Assembly (NCBI RefSeq): GCF_003334335.1
Contig: NZ_QOWQ01000007.1
Direction: 5' to 3' (one strand)
DNA from: Escherichia coli
GTDB lineage: Bacteria; Pseudomonadota; Gammaproteobacteria; Enterobacterales; Enterobacteriaceae
Length of the DNA: 64,000 bases
Of the stretch, positions 33,255-56,789 are shown in pieces. The translations under genes were made by a program, and so were the position numbers. Within the stretch, counting starts at the first letter, position 1. The number at the start of each line of letters is the position of its first letter. The notes under the pieces were generated by a model. That model saw nothing but the letters and a program-made list of their open reading frames with translations, was not told where the DNA came from and did no database searches.

Positions 33255-33505
33255 AACTAATCTGGTCTGAGGAATCATGGGATGATTATCTGTACTGGCA
33301 GGAAACAGATAAGCGAATTGTTAAAAAGATCAATGAACTTATCAAAGATACCCGCAGAACGCCATTTGAAGGTAAGGGGAAGCCAGAACCCCTGAAACAT
33401 AATTTGTCAGGTTTCTGGTCCCGACGCATTACAGAGGAGCACCGTCTGGTATACGCGGTTACCGACGATTCACTGCTCATTGCAGCATGTCGTTATCATT
33501 ATTGA
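33251..33505 (+). CDS. yoeB: Toxin YoeB (ribosome-dependent mRNA interferase)
   Basis: [70 protein letters not shown]...; 4-nt overlap with yefM. Confidence 0.95.
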
Positions 33506-43785: not shown

Positions 43786-44061
43786 TTAGCGACAGACTTC
43801 TTCTATATGCAGCAAGGCAAAAAGTTCTGCAACTCTATTGTTATTAACCGCACTGGTTACTAACACGTTGTGCGCTCCAGCTTCCCGTAACCAACATTTC
43901 ACCAAAGATATTTGTTCCATGTTGGCTAAATCTGCTTTGGTTACTACTCCAATGACCGGGCGATTCATTGACGAGGTAAAGCCTGGCGAAAAAGGTGACC
44001 ACGGTGCGTCCGCATTAAGCACCAGCGCGATAATGTCTGCTTCGCAGGCACTGACCAACAA
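43786..44061 (-). pseudogene. yoeF: EutP/PduV-family GTPase, C-terminal fragment (yoeF-like remnant); N-terminal P-loop part missing
   Basis: 91 aa ORF with ...[12 protein letters not shown]... typical of EutP/PduV C-terminal halves; no P-loop-encoding sequence found upstream in any frame. Confidence 0.55.
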
Positions 44062-44420
44062 TGCACTGTAGAGGCTGCGGTTTTATCGGTGAGGAGTGGC
44101 AGCAAGATTTCCAGCCTCTTGATGGTGGGCCTGTGCAATCGTTATCAGATGCGTATAGCGATTATTCAGTGCTGCTATTGATAGCAGCTGAAAGCGAGAT
44201 ATCCGTACCAGAATGGCTCGCTCATTCTGAGGGAACGACGGTAATTTTGATTGCAGAACACAATGCCCGTTTGCTGACTGGTCCGGCTGGTGGGGCTGTA
44301 GCATTAATCCATTATCTGAATGAAATCTGTCATTCCAGAGAAACCGCTAGCAATGACGCATTTTGTCGGACGTTAACACGAGGAAGTCTGGCTATTCCGC
44401 AATGCCATCTTCTTTCGTAA
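44061..44420 (+). CDS. Hypothetical 119 aa ORF at the CP4-44 empty site; may be non-coding
   Basis: Only the open reading frame itself; no recognisable domain or convincing RBS. Confidence 0.2.
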
Positions 44421-46991: not shown

Positions 46992-47918
46992 ATGATGCGT
47001 CGTGTAAATATTCTTTGCTCATTTGCTCTGCTTTTTGCCAGCCATACTAGCCTGGCGGTAACTTATCCATTACCTCCAGAGGGTAGCCGTTTAGTGGGGC
47101 AGTCGTATACTGTAACTGTTCCTGATCACAATACCCAGCCGCTGGAGACTTTTGCCGCACAAAACGGGCAAGGGTTAAGTAACATGCTGGAAGCGAACCC
47201 GGGTGCTGATGTTTTCTTGCCGAAGTCTGGCTCGCAACTTACCATTCCGCAGCAACTGATTTTGCCCGCCACTGTTCGTAAAGGGATTGTGGTTAACGTC
47301 GCTGAGATGCGTCTTTATTACTACCCGCCAGACAGTAATACTGTGGAAGTCTTTCCTATTGGTATCGGCCAGGCTGGGCGAGAAACCCCGCGTAACTGGG
47401 TGACTACCGTTGAACGTAAACAAGAAGCTCCAACCTGGACGCCAACGCCGAACACTCGGCGCGAATATGCGAAACGAGGGGAGAGTTTGCCCGCATTTGT
47501 TCCTGCGGGTCCCGATAATCCCATGGGGCTGTACGCGATTTATATTGGCAGGTTGTATGCCATCCATGGTACCAATGCCAATTTTGGTATTGGGCTCCGG
47601 GTAAGTCAGGGCTGTATTCGTCTGCGCAATGACGATATCAAATATCTGTTTGATAATGTTCCTGTTGGAACGCGTGTGCAAATTATCGACCAGCCAGTAA
47701 AATACACCACTGAACCAGATGGCTCGAACTGGCTGGAAGTTCATGAGCCGCTGTCGCGCAATCGTGCAGAATATGAGTCTGACCGAAAAGTACCATTGCC
47801 GGTAACCCCATCTTTGCGGGCGTTTATCAACGGGCAAGAAGTTGATGTAAATCGCGCAAATGCTGCGTTGCAACGTCGATCGGGAATGCCTGTGAATATC
47901 AACCGTAACGGATTTTGA
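46992..47918 (+). CDS. ldtA: L,D-transpeptidase (ErfK/LdtA)
   Basis: Signal peptide plus YkuD-type L,D-transpeptidase domain (...[20 protein letters not shown]...). Confidence 0.92.
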
Positions 47919-48003
47919 CATTCAAAACGTCTGGTTTTTCGGTCTGTGTAAGCATTACGTCATGCAAAACTGGTTGTTTCGAATCATACAAATCATAATT
48001 TTC

Positions 48004-48030
48004 TTCTCATATGCGCATCTCTTATGAGCA
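48004..48030 (+). promoter_or_regulatory. Imperfect inverted repeat TtCTCATATG-N7-CTTATGAGCA upstream of the SorC-family regulator gene (candidate operator)
   Basis: Read directly; half-site resembles the TGCTCAT palindromes at 53066-53204. Confidence 0.35.
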
Positions 48031-48079
48031 TAATCGTTATACTCTTCTGATTTATACATGTTTGCTGATGACATGATCA

Positions 48080-49057
48080 ATGGAAAAGAGAATGACGAAA
48101 CAGAAAAAAAACAGCCGCTGGCAGGGTTACGATCCTCGCTACATATACTCGCTCGTGGTCAGACGTTATTTTGCGGATATGAAAACCAAGATTGAGATTG
48201 CAGAGGAGCTTGGCGTTTCCCGCTTTAAAGTTGCCAGATTGATCGATGAGGCGATCGAACAGGATTACGTGAGGTTTATCTTCCCTAAGCAGCAAGCGAT
48301 GGATGAAGAAATCGCCAGTAATTTACGGAAAAAATTTCATCTGGAAGATGCAATTGTTCTTTCAGTTGCTGAATCCTGGACGACGCAAGAAGAACTCAAT
48401 CACAAATTGGGTGAAGTCACCGCTGAATATCTTATGCAATCTCTTCATGAAGGTATGAAAGTGGGGATCGCCTGGGGGCGTGTATTATCAAGCACGGTCA
48501 GTAAGTTGAGCAAGTTGCCTCCTTTAGACGTTGTGCAGTTATCTGGCGTACATCCGGGGATTGAGTTCAGTCAAGGGCCAATAGATCTTATTCATAAGAT
48601 CGCTGCCATTTCGCAGGGAAAAGCGCACCCAATGTACGTGCCGATGTGGGTCGATGACGAAGAGCTTGCTGCCAGACTGGCAGGTGATCCTGCGGTATTA
48701 GATACACAGCAATATTACTCACAGTTGGATGTGGTTATCACCGGGATAGGTGACTGGAAATCAGGTTCTTCAAGCTTGTGTAAAATATTTCCGGATACCT
48801 GGTGCGAAGCGTTGTTTCAACAAGATATCGCTGCGGATGTGTGTATCTCGTTGGTCAACAGGGAAGGGAAGATTCTTCATAGTCCTATTGAACGTCTGGG
48901 ATTTGGCATTTCGACGGATCAACTACAAAAAGCCAAAAAAGTGATTGGTGTCGCTGGAGGAGAAGAAAAATATGAAGGCATCCTTGCTTCGCTGAAATCC
49001 GGACTTTTGAATGTCTTAATTACTGATTTTGATACGGCCATTAAACTTCTGGATTAA
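48080..49057 (+). CDS. SorC/DeoR-type transcriptional regulator (N-terminal HTH, C-terminal sugar-phosphate-binding domain)
   Basis: 325 aa; HTH region IEIAEELGVSRFKVARLIDEA followed by a SorC-like effector domain; start could also be the ATG at 48092. Confidence 0.8.
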   Translation: MEKRMTKQKKNSRWQGYDPRYIYSLVVRRYFADMKTKIEIAEELGVSRFKVARLIDEAIEQDYVRFIFPKQQAMDEEIASNLRKKFHLEDAIVLSVAESWTTQEELNHKLGEVTAEYLMQSLHEGMKVGIAWGRVLSSTVSKLSKLPPLDVVQLSGVHPGIEFSQGPIDLIHKIAAISQGKAHPMYVPMWVDDEELAARLAGDPAVLDTQQYYSQLDVVITGIGDWKSGSSSLCKIFPDTWCEALFQQDIAADVCISLVNREGKILHSPIERLGFGISTDQLQKAKKVIGVAGGEEKYEGILASLKSGLLNVLITDFDTAIKLLD

Positions 49058-49075
49058 TAGCCATATCAGTGAAGA

Positions 49076-49106
49076 AAGGGCAGTACCGCTGATTCTGCCC
49101 TTTTAA
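49076..49106. terminator. Bidirectional terminator between the convergent regulator gene and the PTS operon
   Basis: gggcag-taccgctgatt-ctgccc hairpin followed by tttt. Confidence 0.6.
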
Positions 49107-49108
49107 TT

Positions 49109-49567
49109 TCAGGATGCTTCGAGCGTATCCTCTACATATTTAGCCACGCGCGTTGCAGGTAAATTGCGGCAAGTCTCAACAAAGGCGTTATCCTGAAACA
49201 GTGTGAATAAACGACGCAATATCGACATATGTTGATCACTGGTGGCAAATGCCAGGTTAAACATAATGCTACAATCAACTGTTAAATCAGCATCTTCCAT
49301 TTGCCCGAAAGTGACATCATTGGCGAAACGAACAATACTGATACTGTTGACATTTACCAGCGTGTAATCGGCATGGGGAATGGCGATACCCTGACCGTTT
49401 GCCATCATTAGTCCTGTCGGATAGCTTTTTTCACGTTTCAGACAGGCGTCAATGTATTCTGCAGTGATATAGCCTTTTTCCAATAATTGCGTACCAGCAA
49501 AGGTGATCGCCGTTTGATAGTCACTGATGCTGTTATCAACATCATTCACCAGAATTTCAAATTTCAT
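49109..49567 (-). CDS. PTS enzyme IIA component (galactitol-family PTS)
   Basis: 152 aa; phosphorylatable His context GQGIAIPHADYTL typical of PTS EIIA type 2. Confidence 0.85.
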   Translation of the reverse strand: MKFEILVNDVDNSISDYQTAITFAGTQLLEKGYITAEYIDACLKREKSYPTGLMMANGQGIAIPHADYTLVNVNSISIVRFANDVTFGQMEDADLTVDCSIMFNLAFATSDQHMSILRRLFTLFQDNAFVETCRNLPATRVAKYVEDTLEAS

Positions 49568-49577
49568 TGCACACCTG

Positions 49578-49862
49578 TTATTTCAACATCTCTTCTTTAA
49601 CTGCAGCGAAAATCTCATCTTCGCCCAGACCAGTCAGTAATCCAGCGCCAACGATGACACGAGTAGTAATGGCCGGGTTATCGAGTTTGGTCGATGAAAC
49701 CACCAGGTCATAGCTGTTGAAGGTATCGCTGGTGCATGCCATTAACGAAGATTTATCGACTTGCGCTTCAATTTTCTCTTCTTTCAGGAAGTCCTGCAGT
49801 ACAGAGACCATGATGGAAGATGAGGCAATTCCGTTTCCGCAAACTACTAAGATTTTTTTCAT
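49578..49862 (-). CDS. PTS enzyme IIB component (GatB-like)
   Basis: 94 aa; MKKILVVCGNGIASSSIM with the active-site Cys near the N-terminus. Confidence 0.85.
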   Translation of the reverse strand: MKKILVVCGNGIASSSIMVSVLQDFLKEEKIEAQVDKSSLMACTSDTFNSYDLVVSSTKLDNPAITTRVIVGAGLLTGLGEDEIFAAVKEEMLK

Positions 49863-49885
49863 TTGATTATTCCTCTGTAAAAGAT

Positions 49886-51256
49886 TTAAAGCGCTTTTTC
49901 CAAATCCGTTTCAATCTGGCGACGTGATTTTTGTTTAATTAAGTATCCAATAGATAACAAAAGGATACCTGCCATCAAATAGCCAATGATTCCAACATGG
50001 CTCAGGGCGGCAAACAGACCAGTAAATGGATTCGCTGACGGGTTAAGTGAAGAGTACATTACGCTGGCATCCGGGTTTGTACCAAATTTCTGGAAGACTT
50101 CGTTGGTAGCCGGTGCCATCCACGACGCAATATACAGACCACCACCGAACAATATGATCGAGGTCACCCAGGTGCGAATAATGTTGCCATTAAAAACAGG
50201 TACCATGCAGGCAATGAAAAACACAAACTGAGAGAGGTCACCCAGTGGCATAACGCGGTTGCCGGGCAAGATCACGGCGAGGATCACAATCACCGGGATC
50301 AGCAATAATGCAGGGGCGATAACTGATGGATGGCCCACAATCAGAGCAGTGTCCATACCAACAGTGATTTGACGATCCGGGAACCGTTTGACCAGTTTTT
50401 TGCGTGCTACGTTGGAAAGCGGAACAAGTCCTTCCATCATGATAGAGGTCATACGTGGTAACAGAAGCATGACCGCAGCCAGATACATCCCTAACTGTAG
50501 GCTGGCGATTATGGTGTGGTATGGGGATTTCCAGCCATAACCACAAAAGCCCAATAAAATACCAATAATAAAACCAACCATAGTTGGATCGCCGAGAATG
50601 CCAAACCGTTTCTGAATAGTTTCGGCGGTCACATTCAGATTACGGAAGCCTGGGATGCGATCATAAATCCAGTTGAATGGATAAGCGAAAAGTAAGTAGG
50701 TATTGGCAACCGGGTGAGAGATCGCAACACCTTTTGGCAGGTTAAAGAATTTTTCGTTATTTTTAGCACCAAGATCGGCAGCGATCAGCGCCCAGACATG
50801 GAATAGCGCGGCGGTCAATGCGCCATACAGGAAGCTACCAGAATAGACGCCAACAATTGCCCCCATTGACGCATTTTGATGAAGATTGAAGACATCAACG
50901 TTAACACAGTCAGTCAGGCGGGCGACCAGCATTGCAATATTTACCGCAACACAGAGGGGAATAATGATAGCGCCCATGCTGGAGCCAAATCCCATAACCG
51001 CAGTCGCTGCGCCACCAACATCGATGGCACTGAGCGAGGAACCTGTTGCTTCTGCTAATCCGGTGACTGCCGGTTGCATTTTTTCCAGCATCAGTTTGAT
51101 GGTCATGGTTAACGCAATGAAACCAATGCCGACTTTGATGGCAGACGAGATACATTCTGAAAGAGGACGGCCAAGTATCTTCATCAGTACCAGAAAGATG
51201 ACCGGGATAAATATAAAATTTCCCAGATCGTTTATAAATTGCGTGATCAGTTCCAT
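49886..51256 (-). CDS. PTS enzyme IIC permease (GatC/SgcC family)
   Basis: 456 aa; shares blocks with GatC as I recall it (IGIGF, VNVDVFN, IQKRFG, MEGLVP, LIVGHPSV, PGNRVMPLGDL). Confidence 0.85.
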   Translation of the reverse strand: MELITQFINDLGNFIFIPVIFLVLMKILGRPLSECISSAIKVGIGFIALTMTIKLMLEKMQPAVTGLAEATGSSLSAIDVGGAATAVMGFGSSMGAIIIPLCVAVNIAMLVARLTDCVNVDVFNLHQNASMGAIVGVYSGSFLYGALTAALFHVWALIAADLGAKNNEKFFNLPKGVAISHPVANTYLLFAYPFNWIYDRIPGFRNLNVTAETIQKRFGILGDPTMVGFIIGILLGFCGYGWKSPYHTIIASLQLGMYLAAVMLLLPRMTSIMMEGLVPLSNVARKKLVKRFPDRQITVGMDTALIVGHPSVIAPALLLIPVIVILAVILPGNRVMPLGDLSQFVFFIACMVPVFNGNIIRTWVTSIILFGGGLYIASWMAPATNEVFQKFGTNPDASVMYSSLNPSANPFTGLFAALSHVGIIGYLMAGILLLSIGYLIKQKSRRQIETDLEKAL

Positions 51257-51259
51257 ACA

Positions 51260-51796
51260 TTAACCCTCAGATTTTTCATCATCTGGTCGGAAACCCATAT
51301 TCCAGCGTACATCAGCGGGCTTAACCAGCAATGCATTATCGTTACGTTCAGCTTCTAGCAAGTTCTTTTTAGAATTTTCTCTGGCGGTGGTGAAGTCGAA
51401 TGGGTTATCCAACCATGCATCGACAATCATTTTGCTGTATTCGAGATCGTTGACCCGGCAACCCAGTCCAATAACTTGTGCGTTATTGCTGAGTCGCGCC
51501 CGCTTTGCGGAGTAGGGGTTAGTAACCGCAACGGCTCTTATGCCCCAGTGTTTGTTGATCTGACAAGTAAAGCCAATGCCAGTCCCACAAATGTAAATTC
51601 CCAGACGGCACTCATCGCGTTGAATAATGCCTGCCATTTCGTCGGCCAGACGCGCGAAGTTATTGACACCTTGTTCCTTACATGTGACGGGATCGTACAC
51701 GATCTCCATGTTTTTCTCTTCTATGAGGTATTTTTTTATCTCCTCTTTACGTGCAAAACCTACATCATCGCTTGCGATAGCAATCTTTGTTTTCAT
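51260..51796 (-). CDS. RpiB/LacA/LacB-family sugar-phosphate isomerase (ribose-5-P isomerase B / allose-6-P isomerase-like) with a C-terminal extension
   Basis: 178 aa; IYICGTGIGFTCQINK...IRAVAVTNPYSAKRARLSNNAQVIGLGCRV...KMIVDAWL aligns with E. coli RpiB blocks from memory; ~30 extra C-terminal residues. Confidence 0.8.
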   Translation of the reverse strand: MKTKIAIASDDVGFARKEEIKKYLIEEKNMEIVYDPVTCKEQGVNNFARLADEMAGIIQRDECRLGIYICGTGIGFTCQINKHWGIRAVAVTNPYSAKRARLSNNAQVIGLGCRVNDLEYSKMIVDAWLDNPFDFTTARENSKKNLLEAERNDNALLVKPADVRWNMGFRPDDEKSEG

Positions 51797-52144
51797 TTCA
51801 TTTTGCCTGTCGTTAAGTAACTAAAGCCAAGTATGCTGTTGGTAAATATTGGTTGTCAATTGAGATCTGAATCACAAAATTTATAACTAATTGATTTTAA
51901 TGGTATTAAAAACCAATAAAAACAAATAAAAAATAAATTAAGCCAATTGAGACAAATTGGGATTGTACAGTGGCGTTGTAATGAATAATAAAAACTCATT
52001 TATTATCAATCGGATATATGGTTTTTGAACTGTTGTCTTTATTGGGTTTATTTGTACTTTCCACTGTTAGTGTTTGTTTTTGTTTGCATCATCTGTGCTA
52101 TGCTTGGCGTTTTCTAAGATGGGTAATAGATTTCAGGAGGAAGG

Positions 52145-52900
52145 ATGTATCTGGTTGATGAAAGGCGAAAGTTAATACTTGAAGACTTAATGTCGGCAGG
52201 TACGGTCTATGTCAGTGATCTTGCACGAAAGTATGAAGTAACGTATGAGACCATCAGGAAAGATTTGACCCATCTTGAACAAAAAGGGCTGCTGATCAAA
52301 AGCCATGGTGGGGCGACTTTAAAGCAAAGGGCTATAGAGCATCCCTTTCAGGTCAGGGAAAAAGAAAATAACTCTTATAAGAAGGCGATAGCTCGTAAAG
52401 CGCTTGATTTCATTCCGCCTAATAGTTCGATGATTATCGGTACGGGCAGTACCACTTTTGAGCTGGCTAACCTGTTATGTATGAAGTCTGGGTTTAAAAT
52501 CTTCACAGATTCGCTCCCCGTTGCCAGTGTGTTGATTGAATCTGACAACCAGGTTTTTCTCTTTGGCGGCGAACTGCGTAGAAAGAGTTCCTCAGTGTTT
52601 GGGGGGTGGGCGGTATCTATGATCAACGATATACATGTTGATCTCTGTTTTATTGGAACCGACGGCTTTAGTAACATGACTGGTCCATCGACGCCTTCTT
52701 CTTCTGATGCGTTTTTGGATCGTACGATAATTTCGCACTCAGACAAAAAATATATCCTCGGTGATTACACCAAGTTTGAGCGCAGCAGTTTATTTAAGAT
52801 CTGCGACTGGTCGGAGATCACCGCCCTTATAACCAACGATCATGCCGACAAAGAGGGGATTGCCGAAGTCGCAAAATACACGTCAGTAATAACCTGTTAG
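52145..52900 (+). CDS. DeoR-family transcriptional regulator
   Basis: 251 aa; N-terminal HTH (RRKLILEDLMSAGTVYVSDLARKYEVTYETIRKDLTHLEQKGLL) and DeoR C-terminal sugar-phosphate sensor domain. Confidence 0.85.
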   Translation: MYLVDERRKLILEDLMSAGTVYVSDLARKYEVTYETIRKDLTHLEQKGLLIKSHGGATLKQRAIEHPFQVREKENNSYKKAIARKALDFIPPNSSMIIGTGSTTFELANLLCMKSGFKIFTDSLPVASVLIESDNQVFLFGGELRRKSSSVFGGWAVSMINDIHVDLCFIGTDGFSNMTGPSTPSSSDAFLDRTIISHSDKKYILGDYTKFERSSLFKICDWSEITALITNDHADKEGIAEVAKYTSVITC

Positions 52901-53065
52901 AACTCACTACGACACGCCTTCTCCCTTCGAATCAGCTTTGCCAAATGTAATCATTTCCCAATTATCAAGTGAGCATCCATGGCGATGCTTGCTTAGCGCC
53001 CTCTATTGAATACATCCTCTGCCTATTGCCAGTTTCAGTTACTTTTTTGCGAAGAAATCACGATT

Positions 53066-53204
53066 TGCTCATATGAGCATAAATACTGACGCCATTATGT
53101 GCTTTTTTGTGATCTGGATTTAATTTCTCAGATCTCGTTATTTATCCACAGGATCGTTGTGCTATAACTGCTCATATGAATATTGTTCAATGCTCATGTG
53201 AGCA
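53066..53204 (+). promoter_or_regulatory. Promoter/operator region of the second PTS operon with three copies of a TGCTCAT-type palindrome
   Basis: TGCTCATATGAGCA (53066-53079, perfect palindrome), TGCTCATATGAA (53169-53180), TGCTCATGTGAGCA (53191-53204), the last one ~10 nt upstream of the RBS. Confidence 0.5.
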
Positions 53205-53227
53205 TTTTTGGGTGAGGGGGAAAGGAT

Positions 53228-53671
53228 ATGATATCGATCAGTGTTGCCGATGGTGCGGGACTGCAGAATTACGATGCCGTGCTTGAGCATATTTTTAACA
53301 CGCACCGTACAACGAATACGGTGAAAGAGAGCTGGCTCAATGCTATGCGTAAACGCGAAGCGGAATATCCGACAGGAATAGAACTGGAAGGTTATTCTAT
53401 CGCTATACCACACTGTGATAGTGAACATGCGAATCAACCTGCTATTTATATCATCCGTCTGCCAGACGCAATACCTGTGAACAGGGCTGATGAAGATGGA
53501 ATATTGTGGGTCAGACTCGTCGTTAATCTTATTGTTACGGATCCTGCTGACCAGCTTCGATTGTTAAAGTCATTATTTAACCATCTCCAAAATGAAGAAT
53601 TTTACCAAAACTTACTGACACTTCCCGTCGATGATGCAAAAGCACTTTTTGTATCCAAAATAATCCAATAG
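53228..53671 (+). CDS. PTS enzyme IIA component (GatA-like)
   Basis: 147 aa; EYPTGIELEGYSIAIPHCDSEHA parallels the GatA active-site region. Confidence 0.85.
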   Translation: MISISVADGAGLQNYDAVLEHIFNTHRTTNTVKESWLNAMRKREAEYPTGIELEGYSIAIPHCDSEHANQPAIYIIRLPDAIPVNRADEDGILWVRLVVNLIVTDPADQLRLLKSLFNHLQNEEFYQNLLTLPVDDAKALFVSKIIQ

Positions 53672-53689
53672 TAAAAACTGGAGTTTATT

Positions 53690-53983
53690 ATGATTAATAT
53701 TCTTGTTGCTTGTGGTAGCGGTGTCGCTACCTCTACGCTTGCTGCTGATGAAGTGAAGTCAGTATGTGCTGAATATGGTATTACGGCATTTAAAATCAAC
53801 AAATGCAGTATGGCTGAACTTTCTTCTGAGATGGCTCATGCAGATATTGTACTCACAACTAATAACTATAAAGGTGATATTGGGAAACCACATATGAGCG
53901 TTGCAGGTTTTGTAACGGGCATTAATGAAGGAGCATTACGCAAGAAATTAGGAGAGTTATTAACTGAATTAGCAAATAGCTAA
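53690..53983 (+). CDS. PTS enzyme IIB component (GatB-like)
   Basis: 97 aa; MINILVACGSGVATSTLAADEVK with the active-site Cys. Confidence 0.87.
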   Translation: MINILVACGSGVATSTLAADEVKSVCAEYGITAFKINKCSMAELSSEMAHADIVLTTNNYKGDIGKPHMSVAGFVTGINEGALRKKLGELLTELANS

Positions 53984-54003
53984 ACCTGACAGGAATAATA
54001 AAA

Positions 54004-55257
54004 ATGGAAATGTTGAAAAATTTAATGGAAACAATCACCGGAATGGGGGCAACTGCAATACTGCCGCTGGTGATATTTATTTTAGGTCTGGTGTTCAGAA
54101 TGAAACCAGGTGCCGCAATCAAGTCGGGCATCACAGTCGGTATTGGTTTTATTGGTTTAGGTCTGGTTGTTGGTTTATTAAATAGTTCATTACAGCCAGC
54201 TATTGAGTATTACTCAAAAGTAGGTAGTGGTTTTACGGTTGCAGATATTGGTTGGCCAGCAGTCGGTGCTGCTGCATGGGTGGCACCTTTTGCCGCATTA
54301 GTGATACCAGTTGGCATCGTACTTAACCTGATTCTGGTGCGTCTGAAATTAACCAAAACGTTAAATGTTGATATCTGGAACTATATGCATTTTTTAGTTC
54401 CGGGCGCTCTGGCATATTTTGTGTTCGATAGTTTTATCATCGGCTTCTCTGTCGCGGTGGCTTTGAGTATTGCGGCTCTGTTTATTGGCGATTTGATTGC
54501 TCCCAGATGGCAAAAATATTATGGACTCGAGGGAACAACCTGTACCACGATGATTCATATCGGCTGGACTCTACCGTTCGCTTGGGTAGTAAATAAAATC
54601 ATTGATTACATCCCAGGGTTAAATAAGTTAGATGTTGACTTAAACAGTGTGCAAAAACGCCTGGGTGTCTTTGGTGAACCTGCAATTATCGGTGTTATCG
54701 TTGGCGCATTACTCGGAGTTTTAACGAAACAGGCAATTACCACAATTGTTCCCATGGCGATGGGGGCTGCTGGCGTCATGGTGTTGTTACCAAAAGTTGT
54801 TGGTGTGCTGATGGAAGGTCTTAACCCAATAGGGAAAAGTGCCAAAGAAATCATGCAAAAACAGATGGGTAAAGATGCTGAATTAAACATCGGTATGGAT
54901 TGTGCTCTAGCGTTGGGGGATCCGGCGACGGTCACCGTGACAGTAATTACCATTCCTTTAACCATGCTATGTGCTCTGGTATTGCCTGATATTAAGATCT
55001 TCCCAATTGGCGTATTGATGTCAATTATTTATATGACCACCATGACCGTAATGGCGAGCAACGGTAACGTGATTCGTTCGATTATCTCGACCTTGTTATT
55101 CTGCGTTGTAGTGATGTATTTAGGCGGTTATGTCGCACCAGGGGCAACGCAATTTTTAGCTGGAGCCGGTGTAGGCTTGCAAGGACAAGGTACTGATTTT
55201 GTATTAACCGGCCCGTGGGAAATTTTAACCTATTGGTTGAGTACCGTATTACATTGA
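54004..55257 (+). CDS. PTS enzyme IIC permease (GatC/SgcC family)
   Basis: 417 aa; VGIGFIGLGLVVGLL, LNVDIWN, VQKRLGVFGEPAIIGV, MEGLNPIG blocks. Confidence 0.87.
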   Translation: MEMLKNLMETITGMGATAILPLVIFILGLVFRMKPGAAIKSGITVGIGFIGLGLVVGLLNSSLQPAIEYYSKVGSGFTVADIGWPAVGAAAWVAPFAALVIPVGIVLNLILVRLKLTKTLNVDIWNYMHFLVPGALAYFVFDSFIIGFSVAVALSIAALFIGDLIAPRWQKYYGLEGTTCTTMIHIGWTLPFAWVVNKIIDYIPGLNKLDVDLNSVQKRLGVFGEPAIIGVIVGALLGVLTKQAITTIVPMAMGAAGVMVLLPKVVGVLMEGLNPIGKSAKEIMQKQMGKDAELNIGMDCALALGDPATVTVTVITIPLTMLCALVLPDIKIFPIGVLMSIIYMTTMTVMASNGNVIRSIISTLLFCVVVMYLGGYVAPGATQFLAGAGVGLQGQGTDFVLTGPWEILTYWLSTVLH

Positions 55258-55279
55258 TTTAATAATCTGGAGTTTTAAC

Positions 55280-55924
55280 ATGGCAAAAATATTACCTTCT
55301 ATATTTGGCGCGGATATTTTACGCCTGAAAGATGAAATTCATTTTCTGGAAGAGGAACAAACCGAAATATTGCACGTTGATTTAATGGATGGCACATACG
55401 TCAGTAATATAGCCTTTGGCCCAAATCAAATTGCAGCAATGAAAAAAGCCAGTTCGATGATCTTTGACGTGCACATGATGCTGGCAAAACCTGAGCGACA
55501 TATTGATGATGTAATCAATACCGGGGCGGAGATGATTTCTGTACATTATGAATCGACGCCACATGTACATTATATTATTCAAAAAATCAAAAAAGCGGGT
55601 CGCAAAGCAGGTGTAGTGCTTAACCCTGGGACACCTGAATCTGTCATCGAGTATTTATTAGATGATATTGATTATATATTGTTAATGACAATTAACCCCG
55701 GGCAACCAGGCCAGACATTTATTCACAAAAGTCTGGAGAAAATCCGTAATGCCAAAAAAATGATATCTGGTAGAGATATTCAAATTGAAGTGGATGGTGG
55801 CGTTAATCTTGATAATGTAAAACAAGTTAAAGAAGCAGGGGCTGACCTTATTGTTGTTGGTGGTGCCTTATTTAACAAACAGCCTCGTGAAAGTTATCAG
55901 GCATTAAAAATCGCTGTTCAGTGA
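55280..55924 (+). CDS. Ribulose-phosphate 3-epimerase family enzyme (AlsE/SgcE-like ketose-phosphate 3-epimerase)
   Basis: 214 aa; HVDLMDG metal-binding motif and overall Rpe-like layout. Confidence 0.82.
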   Translation: MAKILPSIFGADILRLKDEIHFLEEEQTEILHVDLMDGTYVSNIAFGPNQIAAMKKASSMIFDVHMMLAKPERHIDDVINTGAEMISVHYESTPHVHYIIQKIKKAGRKAGVVLNPGTPESVIEYLLDDIDYILLMTINPGQPGQTFIHKSLEKIRNAKKMISGRDIQIEVDGGVNLDNVKQVKEAGADLIVVGGALFNKQPRESYQALKIAVQ

Positions 55925-56021
55925 TCACAATCTAAAAATTTCACATCCAGTTAAGTGAGGTTTTCGATTTCATATCGGGAGGAAAACCTCAGCTAAAAAA
56001 TGTCTTTAATGGAGAAAAGTA

Positions 56022-56774
56022 ATGAGTAATTTTGCAGGTAAAGTGGTTTTAGTTACCGGAGGTGCTCACGGTATTGGCAAAGGGATAGCTAAACAATTTG
56101 CTGATCGTGGCGCACATACTGTTATTGTTGACTATAACGAAGAGAACGGCAAGGCCACTGCAGCAGAGTTAACTTTTGGTGAAGTTAAATCGTTGTTTAT
56201 TAAAACAGATGTCTCCGATCCACAGGCATTAGTGGATGTACGGGAAAAGGTATTTGCTACCTTTGGTCGCATTGATGTGTTGATATTAAATGCCGGTGTG
56301 GCATTTGCCAATAAAGTTAACAATATTTCTTTTGAGGAATGGAATAAGACTATCGCAATTAACTTATCGGGATTATTTAATACCGTTAAGGCGTTTTATG
56401 ATGATTTCCTGACAAATAAGGGATCTATTGTTTATATCTCATCGGGATCAGCACTTTCGGGGACTGGGGGCGGTGTGAGTTATCCTGCCAGTAAAGCGGG
56501 AGGCGAAGGATTGATTCGTGGTCTGGCAAAAGAGTTAGGACCAAAAGGCGTCAATGTTAATGCGATTGCTCCCCGCTTAATAGACACCGGAGAGATGATG
56601 CGGGTCAACTATCCAACACAAGCCGATTTAGACGCTGTCCTGGAAAAAATACCCGTCCGTCGTCTGGGGACTATCGATGATGTGGCTAACCTGGCAATAT
56701 TTTTGGCAGATAAAGATAACTCTTATATTCAGGGACAAACCATTTTAATGGATGGTGGCCGGACTATTGCTTAA
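56022..56774 (+). CDS. Short-chain dehydrogenase/reductase (SDR); candidate polyol-phosphate or sugar-phosphate dehydrogenase
   Basis: 250 aa; TGGAHGIGKG cofactor motif, catalytic YxxxK (YPASK), NAG motif. Confidence 0.85.
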   Translation: MSNFAGKVVLVTGGAHGIGKGIAKQFADRGAHTVIVDYNEENGKATAAELTFGEVKSLFIKTDVSDPQALVDVREKVFATFGRIDVLILNAGVAFANKVNNISFEEWNKTIAINLSGLFNTVKAFYDDFLTNKGSIVYISSGSALSGTGGGVSYPASKAGGEGLIRGLAKELGPKGVNVNAIAPRLIDTGEMMRVNYPTQADLDAVLEKIPVRRLGTIDDVANLAIFLADKDNSYIQGQTILMDGGRTIA

Positions 56775-56789
56775 AAAGGGAGAGAAAAA

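Follow-up and report, generated by a model that had tools for sequence, protein, structure and literature searches.

Which of two transcriptional regulators controls which of two sugar-uptake operons is the question raised by an accessory island in Escherichia coli (RefSeq assembly GCF_003334335.1, contig NZ_QOWQ01000007.1), examined here within a stretch of 64,000 nt that we call the window. On the minus strand, an operon led by an RpiB-like isomerase gene, with genes for the EIIC, EIIB and EIIA components of a Gat-family phosphotransferase system (PTS) behind it, converges on a gene for a SorC-family regulator (module 1). On the plus strand, a second set of Gat-family EIIA, EIIB and EIIC genes (IIA2, IIB2 and IIC2), followed by genes for an Rpe-family epimerase, an SDR dehydrogenase and an HxlB-like SIS isomerase, lies downstream of a DeoR/GlpR-type regulator gene (module 2). 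The original prediction, made from the sequence of this stretch, assigned the SorC-type protein to module 1 and the DeoR-type protein to module 2. Comparison with related loci points the other way. The best explanation of the whole, to which we give a probability of about 0.75, is a horizontally acquired two-module island in which the DeoR-type regulator belongs with module 1 and the SorC-type regulator with module 2.

Regulators and modules in related loci

Genes were called by comparing the open reading frame (ORF) list with the RefSeq/PGAP annotation of a 100%-identical E. coli genome, and families were assigned with NCBIfam profiles. The annotation agrees with the five ORFs of module 1 and its convergent SorC-type gene, upholding the minus-strand order isomerase-IIC-IIB-IIA described earlier. 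Isomerase contexts were taken from contigs encoding isomerase homologues, and SorC contexts from an alignment scan for SorC orthologues with one genome per species; thirteen island proteins were mapped onto the loci from the SorC scan.

A cassette consisting of a DeoR-type gene and a divergent RpiB-like-IIC-IIB-IIA-SIS operon was found in L. plantarum, S. gallolyticus, Orbus, V. cholerae and two further proteobacterial contigs, and four of these loci contain neither SorC nor module 2. Across Firmicutes and Proteobacteria, an orthologue of the E. coli DeoR-type gene stands divergently beside the RpiB-led operon in 14 of 14 other loci; the E. coli protein is 54–88% identical to the cassette regulator in 5 loci. 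The isomerase gene heads its operon in every homologous locus examined, which bears out its leading position in E. coli as first reported, and the module 1 cassette is common to both phyla at 70–95% protein identity. In 8 species whose loci lack module 1, a SorC orthologue (71–82% identity) immediately precedes module 2 in the same orientation (Izhakiella, Erwinia typographi, Pseudocitrobacter, Brenneria roseae, two Pantoea, an Erwinia sp. and the uncultured enterobacterium UBA5654). No locus in the one-genome-per-species scan combines SorC with module 1 alone. In V. cholerae, SorC and module 2 are followed downstream by a complete DeoR/module 1 cassette, and loci arranged as in E. coli are found in Klebsiella, Pectobacterium, Entomohabitans, Enterobacter, Citrobacter and Providencia. 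On these comparative grounds, the most likely pairing is that of the DeoR-type regulator with module 1 and the SorC-type regulator with module 2. The earlier proposal of two regulated uptake systems holds insofar as there are two Gat-family PTS modules, each with its own regulator; its pairing of regulators with modules is contradicted by synteny (the 14 loci and the 8 species) and by the positions of the palindromes described below.

Because of this synteny, the convergent layout would be a by-product of an inverted insertion of the DeoR/module 1 unit between sorC and its operon, and it looks like a rearrangement scar rather than a regulatory design. We propose that module 1 comprises a DeoR-type repressor and the divergent RpiB-like/EIIC/EIIB/EIIA genes, in a cassette that normally ends in a 6-phospho-3-hexuloisomerase-like SIS gene (SIS1; that of module 2 is SIS2), and that module 2 is the ancestral partner of SorC. 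In an enterobacterial ancestor, the cassette would have inserted, inverted, just past the sorC stop codon, which would have made sorC and module 1 convergent, with the DeoR gene reading towards module 2. SIS1 would later have been deleted in E. coli with a bidirectional terminator hairpin left behind, probably because its reaction is also catalysed by the module 2 paralogue. A cassette insertion can thus put 4 kb between a repressor gene and its operon, and assigning regulators to the nearest genes can then mislead.

Control regions and competing readings

The 330 bp upstream of IIA2 were aligned for 15 loci, with sorC either adjacent or displaced. The alignment contains 3–4 copies of the palindrome TGCTCAnnTGAGCA together with the extended −10-like element TGTGCTATAAC, and in each of the 16 loci with SorC the palindrome occurs at about −290, −170, −60 and −46 relative to the start of IIA2. 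In E. coli, the copies at 53066 and 53191 are perfect and those at 52962 and 53169 carry 2 mismatches; the proximal sites come immediately after the −10-like element, where a repressor would be expected to bind. None was found in the RpiB–DeoR intergenic region (51797–52144), either in E. coli or across the 16 loci, and the palindrome is absent in the five SorC-less loci, including upstream of module 2 of L. plantarum, which is headed by a PRD-type regulator and not by SorC. SorC would repress module 2 through 3–4 copies of TGCTCAnnTGAGCA that flank and overlap its promoter. The gel shift proposed earlier, with the SorC-type protein on 51797–52144 and 48000–48080, would probably use the wrong fragments. 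The degenerate copy upstream of sorC is a possible site of autoregulation; comparable weak copies precede sorC in V. cholerae, Erwinia typographi and Brenneria.

The predicted module 1 promoter is the best promoter match of its region (10/12), and both it and the CCAAY repeat in its spacer are conserved from E. coli to L. plantarum (Firmicutes). The pattern TTGACANCCAAYNNNNNCCAAY occurs once per enterobacterial locus, always at the position of this promoter, and the CCAAY-N5-CCAAY repeat is a candidate DeoR operator. A site of the form TGTGA-N6-TCTCA is kept in proteobacterial loci and absent from Firmicutes; its E. coli version, TGTGATTCAGATCTCA, presumably corresponds to the CRP consensus TGTGA-N6-TCACA. 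A block, TTTATTTGTTTTTATTGG, is conserved across loci in the RpiB–DeoR intergenic region, and the A/T-rich phased repeats there are further candidate operators of the DeoR type. The DeoR-type protein would bind the CCAAY repeats and the A/T-rich phased repeats at the module 1 promoter.

Several points weigh against this assignment of regulators, which draws on synteny and co-occurrence only. The six matches to TGCTCAnnTGAGCA in the window with up to 2 mismatches (5 upstream of IIA2 or sorC, the other at 33474) compare with 3.0 expected, a number not significant alone, and what carries the argument from the palindrome is its clustering and its conservation between species. Only degenerate copies precede sorC, and the CRP-like site lies at an unusual distance from the predicted −35 hexamer. 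Composite loci always hold both regulators together, so cross-regulation is possible; and transcripts begun at the DeoR promoter could run on into module 2 and couple the two modules, since no intrinsic terminator is predicted in the gap before IIA2.

This missing terminator would suit an integrated regulon, in which both regulators have acted on both modules since the fusion, forming one unit for a sugar and its polyol; module 2 could, for example, be expressed by DeoR-controlled read-through from the promoter of the DeoR gene and gated a second time by SorC. The stability of the composite layout in E. coli, Klebsiella, Citrobacter, Pectobacterium, Providencia and Enterobacter fits as well, and repeated loss of SIS1 suggests joint use of the modules. 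We nevertheless regard such integration as unlikely: the module 2 promoter/operator block is intact and as conserved in composite as in simple loci, no conserved array of CCAAY repeats lies upstream of IIA2, and the module 1 promoter is without the palindrome. The pairing given in the original prediction is very improbable. Position in E. coli speaks for it, module 1 having sorC as the regulator gene closest to its 3′ end and the DeoR gene lying directly upstream of module 2 on the same strand, again with no predicted terminator between them; it is opposed by the divergent DeoR partner in all 14 other module 1 loci (four of them without module 2), by SorC accompanying module 2 alone in 8 species and never module 1 alone, and by the absence of the SorC-linked palindrome from the module 1 promoter region. 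Just as implausible is a functionally orphaned sorC, a passenger in E. coli transcribed by read-through from the neighbouring gene ldtA only or not at all. The island border did remove the terminator of ldtA, and, because the old ldtA/asnV terminator was moved, none is predicted between ldtA and sorC; a promoter scan gave no strong match upstream of sorC, where only degenerate palindromes occur. The gene is, however, intact, 73–84% identical to orthologues in many genera and part of a cluster of ~800 member sequences, and two of its candidate operators ahead of IIA2 are perfect palindromes in E. coli itself.

The two regulators are assigned at family level. For the SorC-type protein, close homologues all carry the sugar-(phosphate)-binding domain PF04198, which together with its N-terminal helix-turn-helix (HTH) domain places it in the SorC family; alignments to the NCBIfam models for B. 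subtilis DeoR and LsrR are full-length (residues 28–324) at scores under the equivalog cut-offs (131 vs 420 and 81 vs 486). The start at 48092 is that of PGAP and of 321-aa homologues, and an AAGAG Shine-Dalgarno-like sequence is found there and none at 48080. The protein resembles K. pneumoniae SorC, B. subtilis DeoR and CggR, LsrR and Brucella EryD in its HTH and PF04198 domains, in the position of its gene at a sugar catabolic operon and in palindromic candidate operators that overlap the promoter; it differs in that, in E. coli, a whole inserted operon lies between sorC and its putative target. The DeoR-type protein belongs to the DeoR/GlpR family by the Pfam labels on its orthologues (HTH_DeoR PF08220 and DeoRC PF00455). 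It matches the AgaR, SrlR and GlpR models over their full length, all under the equivalog cut-offs, AgaR being nearest at 171 bits. A separate observation concerns a 42%-identical SorC paralogue in Cedecea sp. (contig L045, 8865–17374; similar in L032, L033 and L035–L039), which heads a locus and has a second SorC-like gene beside it; also encoded there are a ribose-type ABC transporter, an FGGY (XylB-like) kinase, a KpsF/GutQ-like SIS protein and a short Rpe-like protein. The locus appears to be a kinase/ABC-based analogue of module 2, and it names no substrate.

Table 1. Coordinates of the island, its genes and its predicted control elements in the window
Feature	Position	Strand	Remarks
Accessory island	47895..57354	.	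~9.46 kb; between the ldtA 3′ end and tRNA-Asn (asnV)
Degenerate TGCTCAnnTGAGCA copy	48004..48017	+	2 mismatches; 88 bp upstream of sorC
SorC-family regulator	48092..49057	+	Sugar-binding domain and HTH; alternative upstream ATG at 48080; putative module 2 repressor
Bidirectional terminator-like hairpin	49074..49104	.	In the 51-bp gap between convergent sorC and EIIA
Module 1 EIIA (PTS_EIIA_2)	49109..49567	-	39–76% identity to cassette IIA1
Module 1 EIIB (PTS_IIB)	49578..49862	-	66–92% identity to cassette IIB1
Module 1 EIIC, Gat family	49886..51256	-	78–95% identity to cassette IIC1, including L. plantarum and S. gallolyticus
RpiB/LacA/LacB-family isomerase	51260..51796	-	178 aa; conserved C-terminal KPxxVxWNMGF tail
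Predicted module 1 promoter, TTGACA-18-CATACT	51830..51859	-	CCAAY-N5-CCAAY direct repeat in spacer
CRP-like site TGTGATTCAGATCTCA	51861..51876	-	Directly upstream of the −35 hexamer
A/T-rich 10-bp-phased repeats (AAACCAATAAAAACAAAT-like; families D1, D2)	51905..51957	.	RpiB–DeoR intergenic region
DeoR/GlpR-family regulator	52145..52900	+	Divergent from the RpiB-led operon; putative module 1 repressor
Module 2 control region	52962..53204	+	Four TGCTCAnnTGAGCA copies
Conserved extended −10-like element TGTGCTATAAC	53158-53168	+	In the module 2 control region
Module 2 EIIA	53228-53671	+	Gat family
Module 2 EIIB	53690-53983	+	Gat family
Module 2 EIIC	54004-55257	+	Gat family
Rpe-family epimerase	55280-55924	+	rpe TIGR01163, 235 bits vs cut-off 212.6
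SDR dehydrogenase	56022-56774	+	Generic SDR
HxlB-like SIS isomerase (SIS2)	56790-57350	+	HxlB TIGR03127, 209 bits vs 160
tRNA-Asn (asnV)	57409..57484	-	3′ end faces the island

Isomerases, transporters and possible substrates

In every locus, module 2 comes with a SIS gene of its own. SIS1 differs from locus to locus: it is intact in Pectobacterium, K. oxytoca, Citrobacter and V. cholerae, reduced to a 109-codon remnant on K. pneumoniae plasmids, and absent from E. coli, Entomohabitans, Enterobacter wuhouensis and Providencia. The SIS1 and SIS2 proteins are 50–55% identical and both exceed the HxlB cut-off of 160 (189 and 209 bits). SIS1 is lost only where module 2 is present, which suggests that the two enzymes are interchangeable and, in turn, that the modules converge on one intermediate. 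That both modules ancestrally end in paralogous 6-phospho-3-hexuloisomerase-like genes makes plausible the related substrates envisaged at the outset. We rejected the idea that E. coli SIS2 is a relocated SIS1: it is 62% identical to L. plantarum SIS2 compared with 42–55% to any SIS1. Passing the HxlB equivalog-domain cut-off is a likeness of both proteins to HxlB of the ribulose monophosphate (RuMP) pathway (B. subtilis hxlAB). The island differs in having no hexulose-phosphate synthase, its TIM-barrel gene scoring as rpe with only 34 bits for HxlA, and in a context of PTS sugar catabolism, not formaldehyde fixation.

The hairpin between sorC and EIIA folds on both strands (−15.9 kcal/mol, z −3.3, on the plus strand; −14.6 kcal/mol, z −3.7, on the minus strand), has U-rich tails and looks like a bidirectional terminator separating the convergent genes. 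A similar hairpin with a T tract follows EIIA and precedes the SIS gene in most other loci, in Firmicutes and Proteobacteria (L002, 10672–10749; L009, 8152–8205; L010, 10693–10772; L011, 11131–11193; L025, 5770–5825). It is conserved as a feature, not as a sequence, and suggests that transcription partly terminates there or that the SIS gene is expressed on its own.

The isomerase belongs to the RpiB/LacA/LacB family (PF02502; TIGR00689, 99.7 bits vs a cut-off of 88.3), and its catalytic Cys-Gly-Thr (C70-G71-T72, aligned to C66-G67-T68 of E. coli RpiB) is invariant in 20 homologues of 63–90% identity. It falls below the cut-offs for RpiB proper (TIGR01120 equivalog, 103.8 vs 138.65), for galactose-6-phosphate isomerase (LacB 65.4 vs 234, LacA 53.3 vs 164) and for D-erythrulose-4-phosphate isomerase (DerI/EryI, NF051858, 99.7 vs 240). 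A single gene encodes it in every locus, unlike the heteromeric LacA/LacB pair of adjacent paralogues. Compared with E. coli RpiB/AlsB (PDB 2vvr, 1nn4), the fold and the Cys-Gly-Thr are kept, whereas two histidines are replaced and a C-terminal tail is added. His99 and His10 of E. coli RpiB are the ring-opening residues. In the island enzyme they correspond to S103 and D11, respectively, replacements that are invariant or nearly so across the subfamily.

The C-terminal extension noticed earlier, for which an annotation artefact had been considered, is genuine. Homologues from many phyla are 172–178 aa long and keep the tail, which rules out a frameshift, and in the 20 homologues K159, P160, W165, N166, M167, G168 and F169 are invariant; the variable part of the tail is confined to the last 7–9 residues (RPDDEKSEG). 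Sequence alignment to E. coli RpiB (149 aa) ends at residue 134, and in the structural alignment (~154 columns) the tail has no counterpart there. In the AlphaFold (AF2) model (predicted local distance difference test, pLDDT, 93.9), the RpiB fold continues to a helix at 140–156 and is followed by a confidently placed extended segment. E. coli RpiB is the best Foldseek match (template modelling (TM) score 0.93 on the target, 35% identity). The extra residues number 22–29, and the WNMGF motif has no counterpart in any solved structure. A relationship to the C-terminal extension of LacB was considered and not retained, LacB ranking far under the RpiB structures (root-mean-square deviation 4.6, 25% identity) and its equivalog scores being low. 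Judged by its sequence conservation, the KPxxVxWNMGF tail marks a distinct, uncharacterised RpiB subfamily, which makes a clean target for enzymology.

Both transporters are of the Gat family (transporter classification, TC, 4.A.5). The module 1 EIIC matches TIGR00827 (EIIC-GAT) with 350.6 bits (E 1e-104, positions 2–401 of 407), its orthologues carry PF03611, and separate EIIB (PF02302) and EIIA (PF00359) proteins are encoded beside it. The motifs ILVVCGNG (an N-terminal Cys motif, in IIB) and IAIPH (in IIA), seen in the translations, are presumably the phospho-acceptors. Module 2 IIB and IIC are 61–69% identical to those of L. plantarum module 2. The founding member of the Gat family is the E. 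coli gat operon (gatYZABCD with the DeoR-type GatR), which the island resembles in its separate EIIA, EIIB and EIIC proteins (PF00359, PF02302, PF03611) and in its DeoR/GlpR-type repressor. It differs in several respects. The galactitol-specific GatABC cut-offs are missed by the module 1 EIIC (350.6 vs 542.2), IIA (81.2 vs 139) and IIB (20.1 vs 95), the two island EIICs scoring 350 and 321 bits against the 542-bit galactitol cut-off; the isomerase comes first in the operon; and neither galactitol-1-phosphate dehydrogenase (GatD) nor tagatose-bisphosphate aldolase (GatYZ) is annotated in the island. The substrate is probably not galactitol.

In the scheme that we favour for the two modules, module 1 would import and phosphorylate a sugar that two isomerases turn into a central metabolite, and module 2 would import a polyol whose phosphate is oxidised, epimerised and isomerised; with the module 2 paralogue doing the SIS1 reaction, the pathways would meet at one intermediate. 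A proposal specific as to substrate, which we consider doubtful, is that the island encodes a PTS-dependent pathway by which four-carbon sugars and polyols are turned into D-erythrose 4-phosphate. Speculatively, module 1 would import and phosphorylate a tetrulose such as L-erythrulose, a breakdown product of ascorbate, SIS would shift the keto group from C3 to C2, and the tailed RpiB-like enzyme would convert the resulting D-erythrulose 4-phosphate to erythrose 4-phosphate. Equally speculatively, module 2 would import erythritol or threitol, the SDR enzyme would oxidise the phosphate ester, the Rpe-like enzyme would invert the centre beside the keto group, and SIS would isomerise the product to the same intermediate. 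On this speculative view, a tetrose/tetritol pathway is the best fit to the enzyme chemistries: two isomerase chemistries suffice alone only at the tetrose level, and the missing ring-opening histidine fits too. Also fitting is the motif around the replacement, LSNNAQII, which the isomerase has in common with Brucella melitensis RpiB (PDB 5ifz), a resemblance only, in a protein that we take to be EryI. Brucella EryI is reportedly the subject of Barbier et al. 2014. Against the proposal, loci with module 2 alone would need an RpiB encoded elsewhere. If true, the tetrose route would parallel the Brucella EryB/EryC/EryH/EryI pathway as a non-homologous analogue. A hexose-level route for module 1 (allose to psicose-6-P to F6P) was not adopted, as a hexuloisomerase cannot complete it by known chemistry.

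Two other Gat-family systems invite comparison. The E. coli sgc cluster (sgcR, sgcE, sgcA, sgcQ, sgcC, sgcB, sgcX), which we take to be uncharacterised, is presumably similar in combining a Gat-family PTS with an enzyme of the ribulose-phosphate-3-epimerase family and a DeoR-type regulator, and different in having no SDR, hexuloisomerase-like or RpiB-like gene; the island epimerase scores 117 bits against a cut-off of 376 for PRK08005 (ribulose-phosphate 3-epimerase family protein), a model that may be that of SgcE. The pentitol (D-arabitol) locus lmo2659-2668 of Listeria monocytogenes, the subject of Kentache et al. 2016, is said to join a Gat-family PTS to RpiB-family, Rpe-family and polyol-phosphate dehydrogenase genes, as here. 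It is further said to differ in having a transketolase and Zn-dependent dehydrogenases and no hexuloisomerase-like gene. Its PRD-type regulator is a likeness to module 2 of L. plantarum.

Variation within module 2 was seen in two species. In V. cholerae (contig L011, 6189–6983), a gene for a HAD-family (Hydrolase_3/S6PP) phosphatase follows the module 2 SIS gene; the enzyme may relieve sugar-phosphate stress. In Rouxiella silvae (contig L027, 8821–9873), module 2 is rearranged: a GatD-like Zn-dependent dehydrogenase takes the place of SDR, and sorC lies between its gene and the SIS gene. Here the dehydrogenase step appears to have passed to a non-orthologous enzyme, a swap that fits a polyol-phosphate dehydrogenase step in module 2.

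The island and its surroundings

The source DNA is E. coli chromosome: 47900–52200 is 100% identical to E. coli strain EC416. Borders were defined by comparison with an island-free E. coli site (L074), homology to which stops at 47894 and restarts at 57355; GC content is ~0.39–0.45 in the island and ~0.50 in the flanks. The left border falls inside the 3′ end of ldtA (47895–47918) and alters the last LdtA residues, which read ...MPVQISSGSRQMF in island-free E. coli and end differently in the island carrier. The right border is 54 bp from the 3′ end of tRNA-Asn, and the original ldtA/asnV bidirectional terminator, at ~57368–57396, now follows the hxlB-like gene. Insertion adjoining a tRNA 3′ end is typical of tRNA-associated genomic islands. 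A classical integrase-mediated island at tRNA-Asn was nevertheless rejected: the 12 ORFs of the island encode PTS components, enzymes or regulators and no integrase, and the junction comparison revealed neither flanking direct repeats nor a duplicated tRNA 3′ end. Nor was a riboswitch or other known RNA element retained for the long intergenic regions, in which Rfam gave only tRNA and one sub-threshold match.

Judged by matches to 47900–52200, the island is present in 282 of 5426 complete E. coli genomes (~5%), chromosomal every time. K. pneumoniae plasmids of 190–220 kb carry the same two-module island at ~79% nucleotide identity, next to IS21-family and DDE transposase genes; one plasmid copy, LR134207, is decayed, its EIIC, RpiB-like and DeoR genes being split. 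A literature search on the gene combination, asnV islands and erythritol PTS found no functional study, only a gene list (PMC5817063) in which module 2 with sorC appears for the Pantoea ananatis OVR-A locus, with no functional data. Found in a small share of E. coli, on large K. pneumoniae plasmids and within the P. ananatis OVR-A locus, the island is strain-variable metabolic equipment, and the strong conservation of the cassette between Firmicutes and Proteobacteria points to a genuine nutrient niche, in gut or plant habitats. This locus, so far unstudied, belongs to a familiar class, that of PTS sugar/polyol catabolic islands with DeoR-type and SorC-type repressors.

Two minor observations concern the rest of the window. 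Just upstream of cobU (43786–44420), a truncated EutP/PduV-family pseudogene and a 119-codon hypothetical ORF look like leftovers of a microcompartment operon. Downstream of the island, three tRNA-Asn genes lie within 4.3 kb (57409–61716; starts at 57409, 59817 and 61641), and directly past the third the GC content falls to 0.36–0.40 (61500–63500), which may mark the edge of another tRNA-Asn-associated island.

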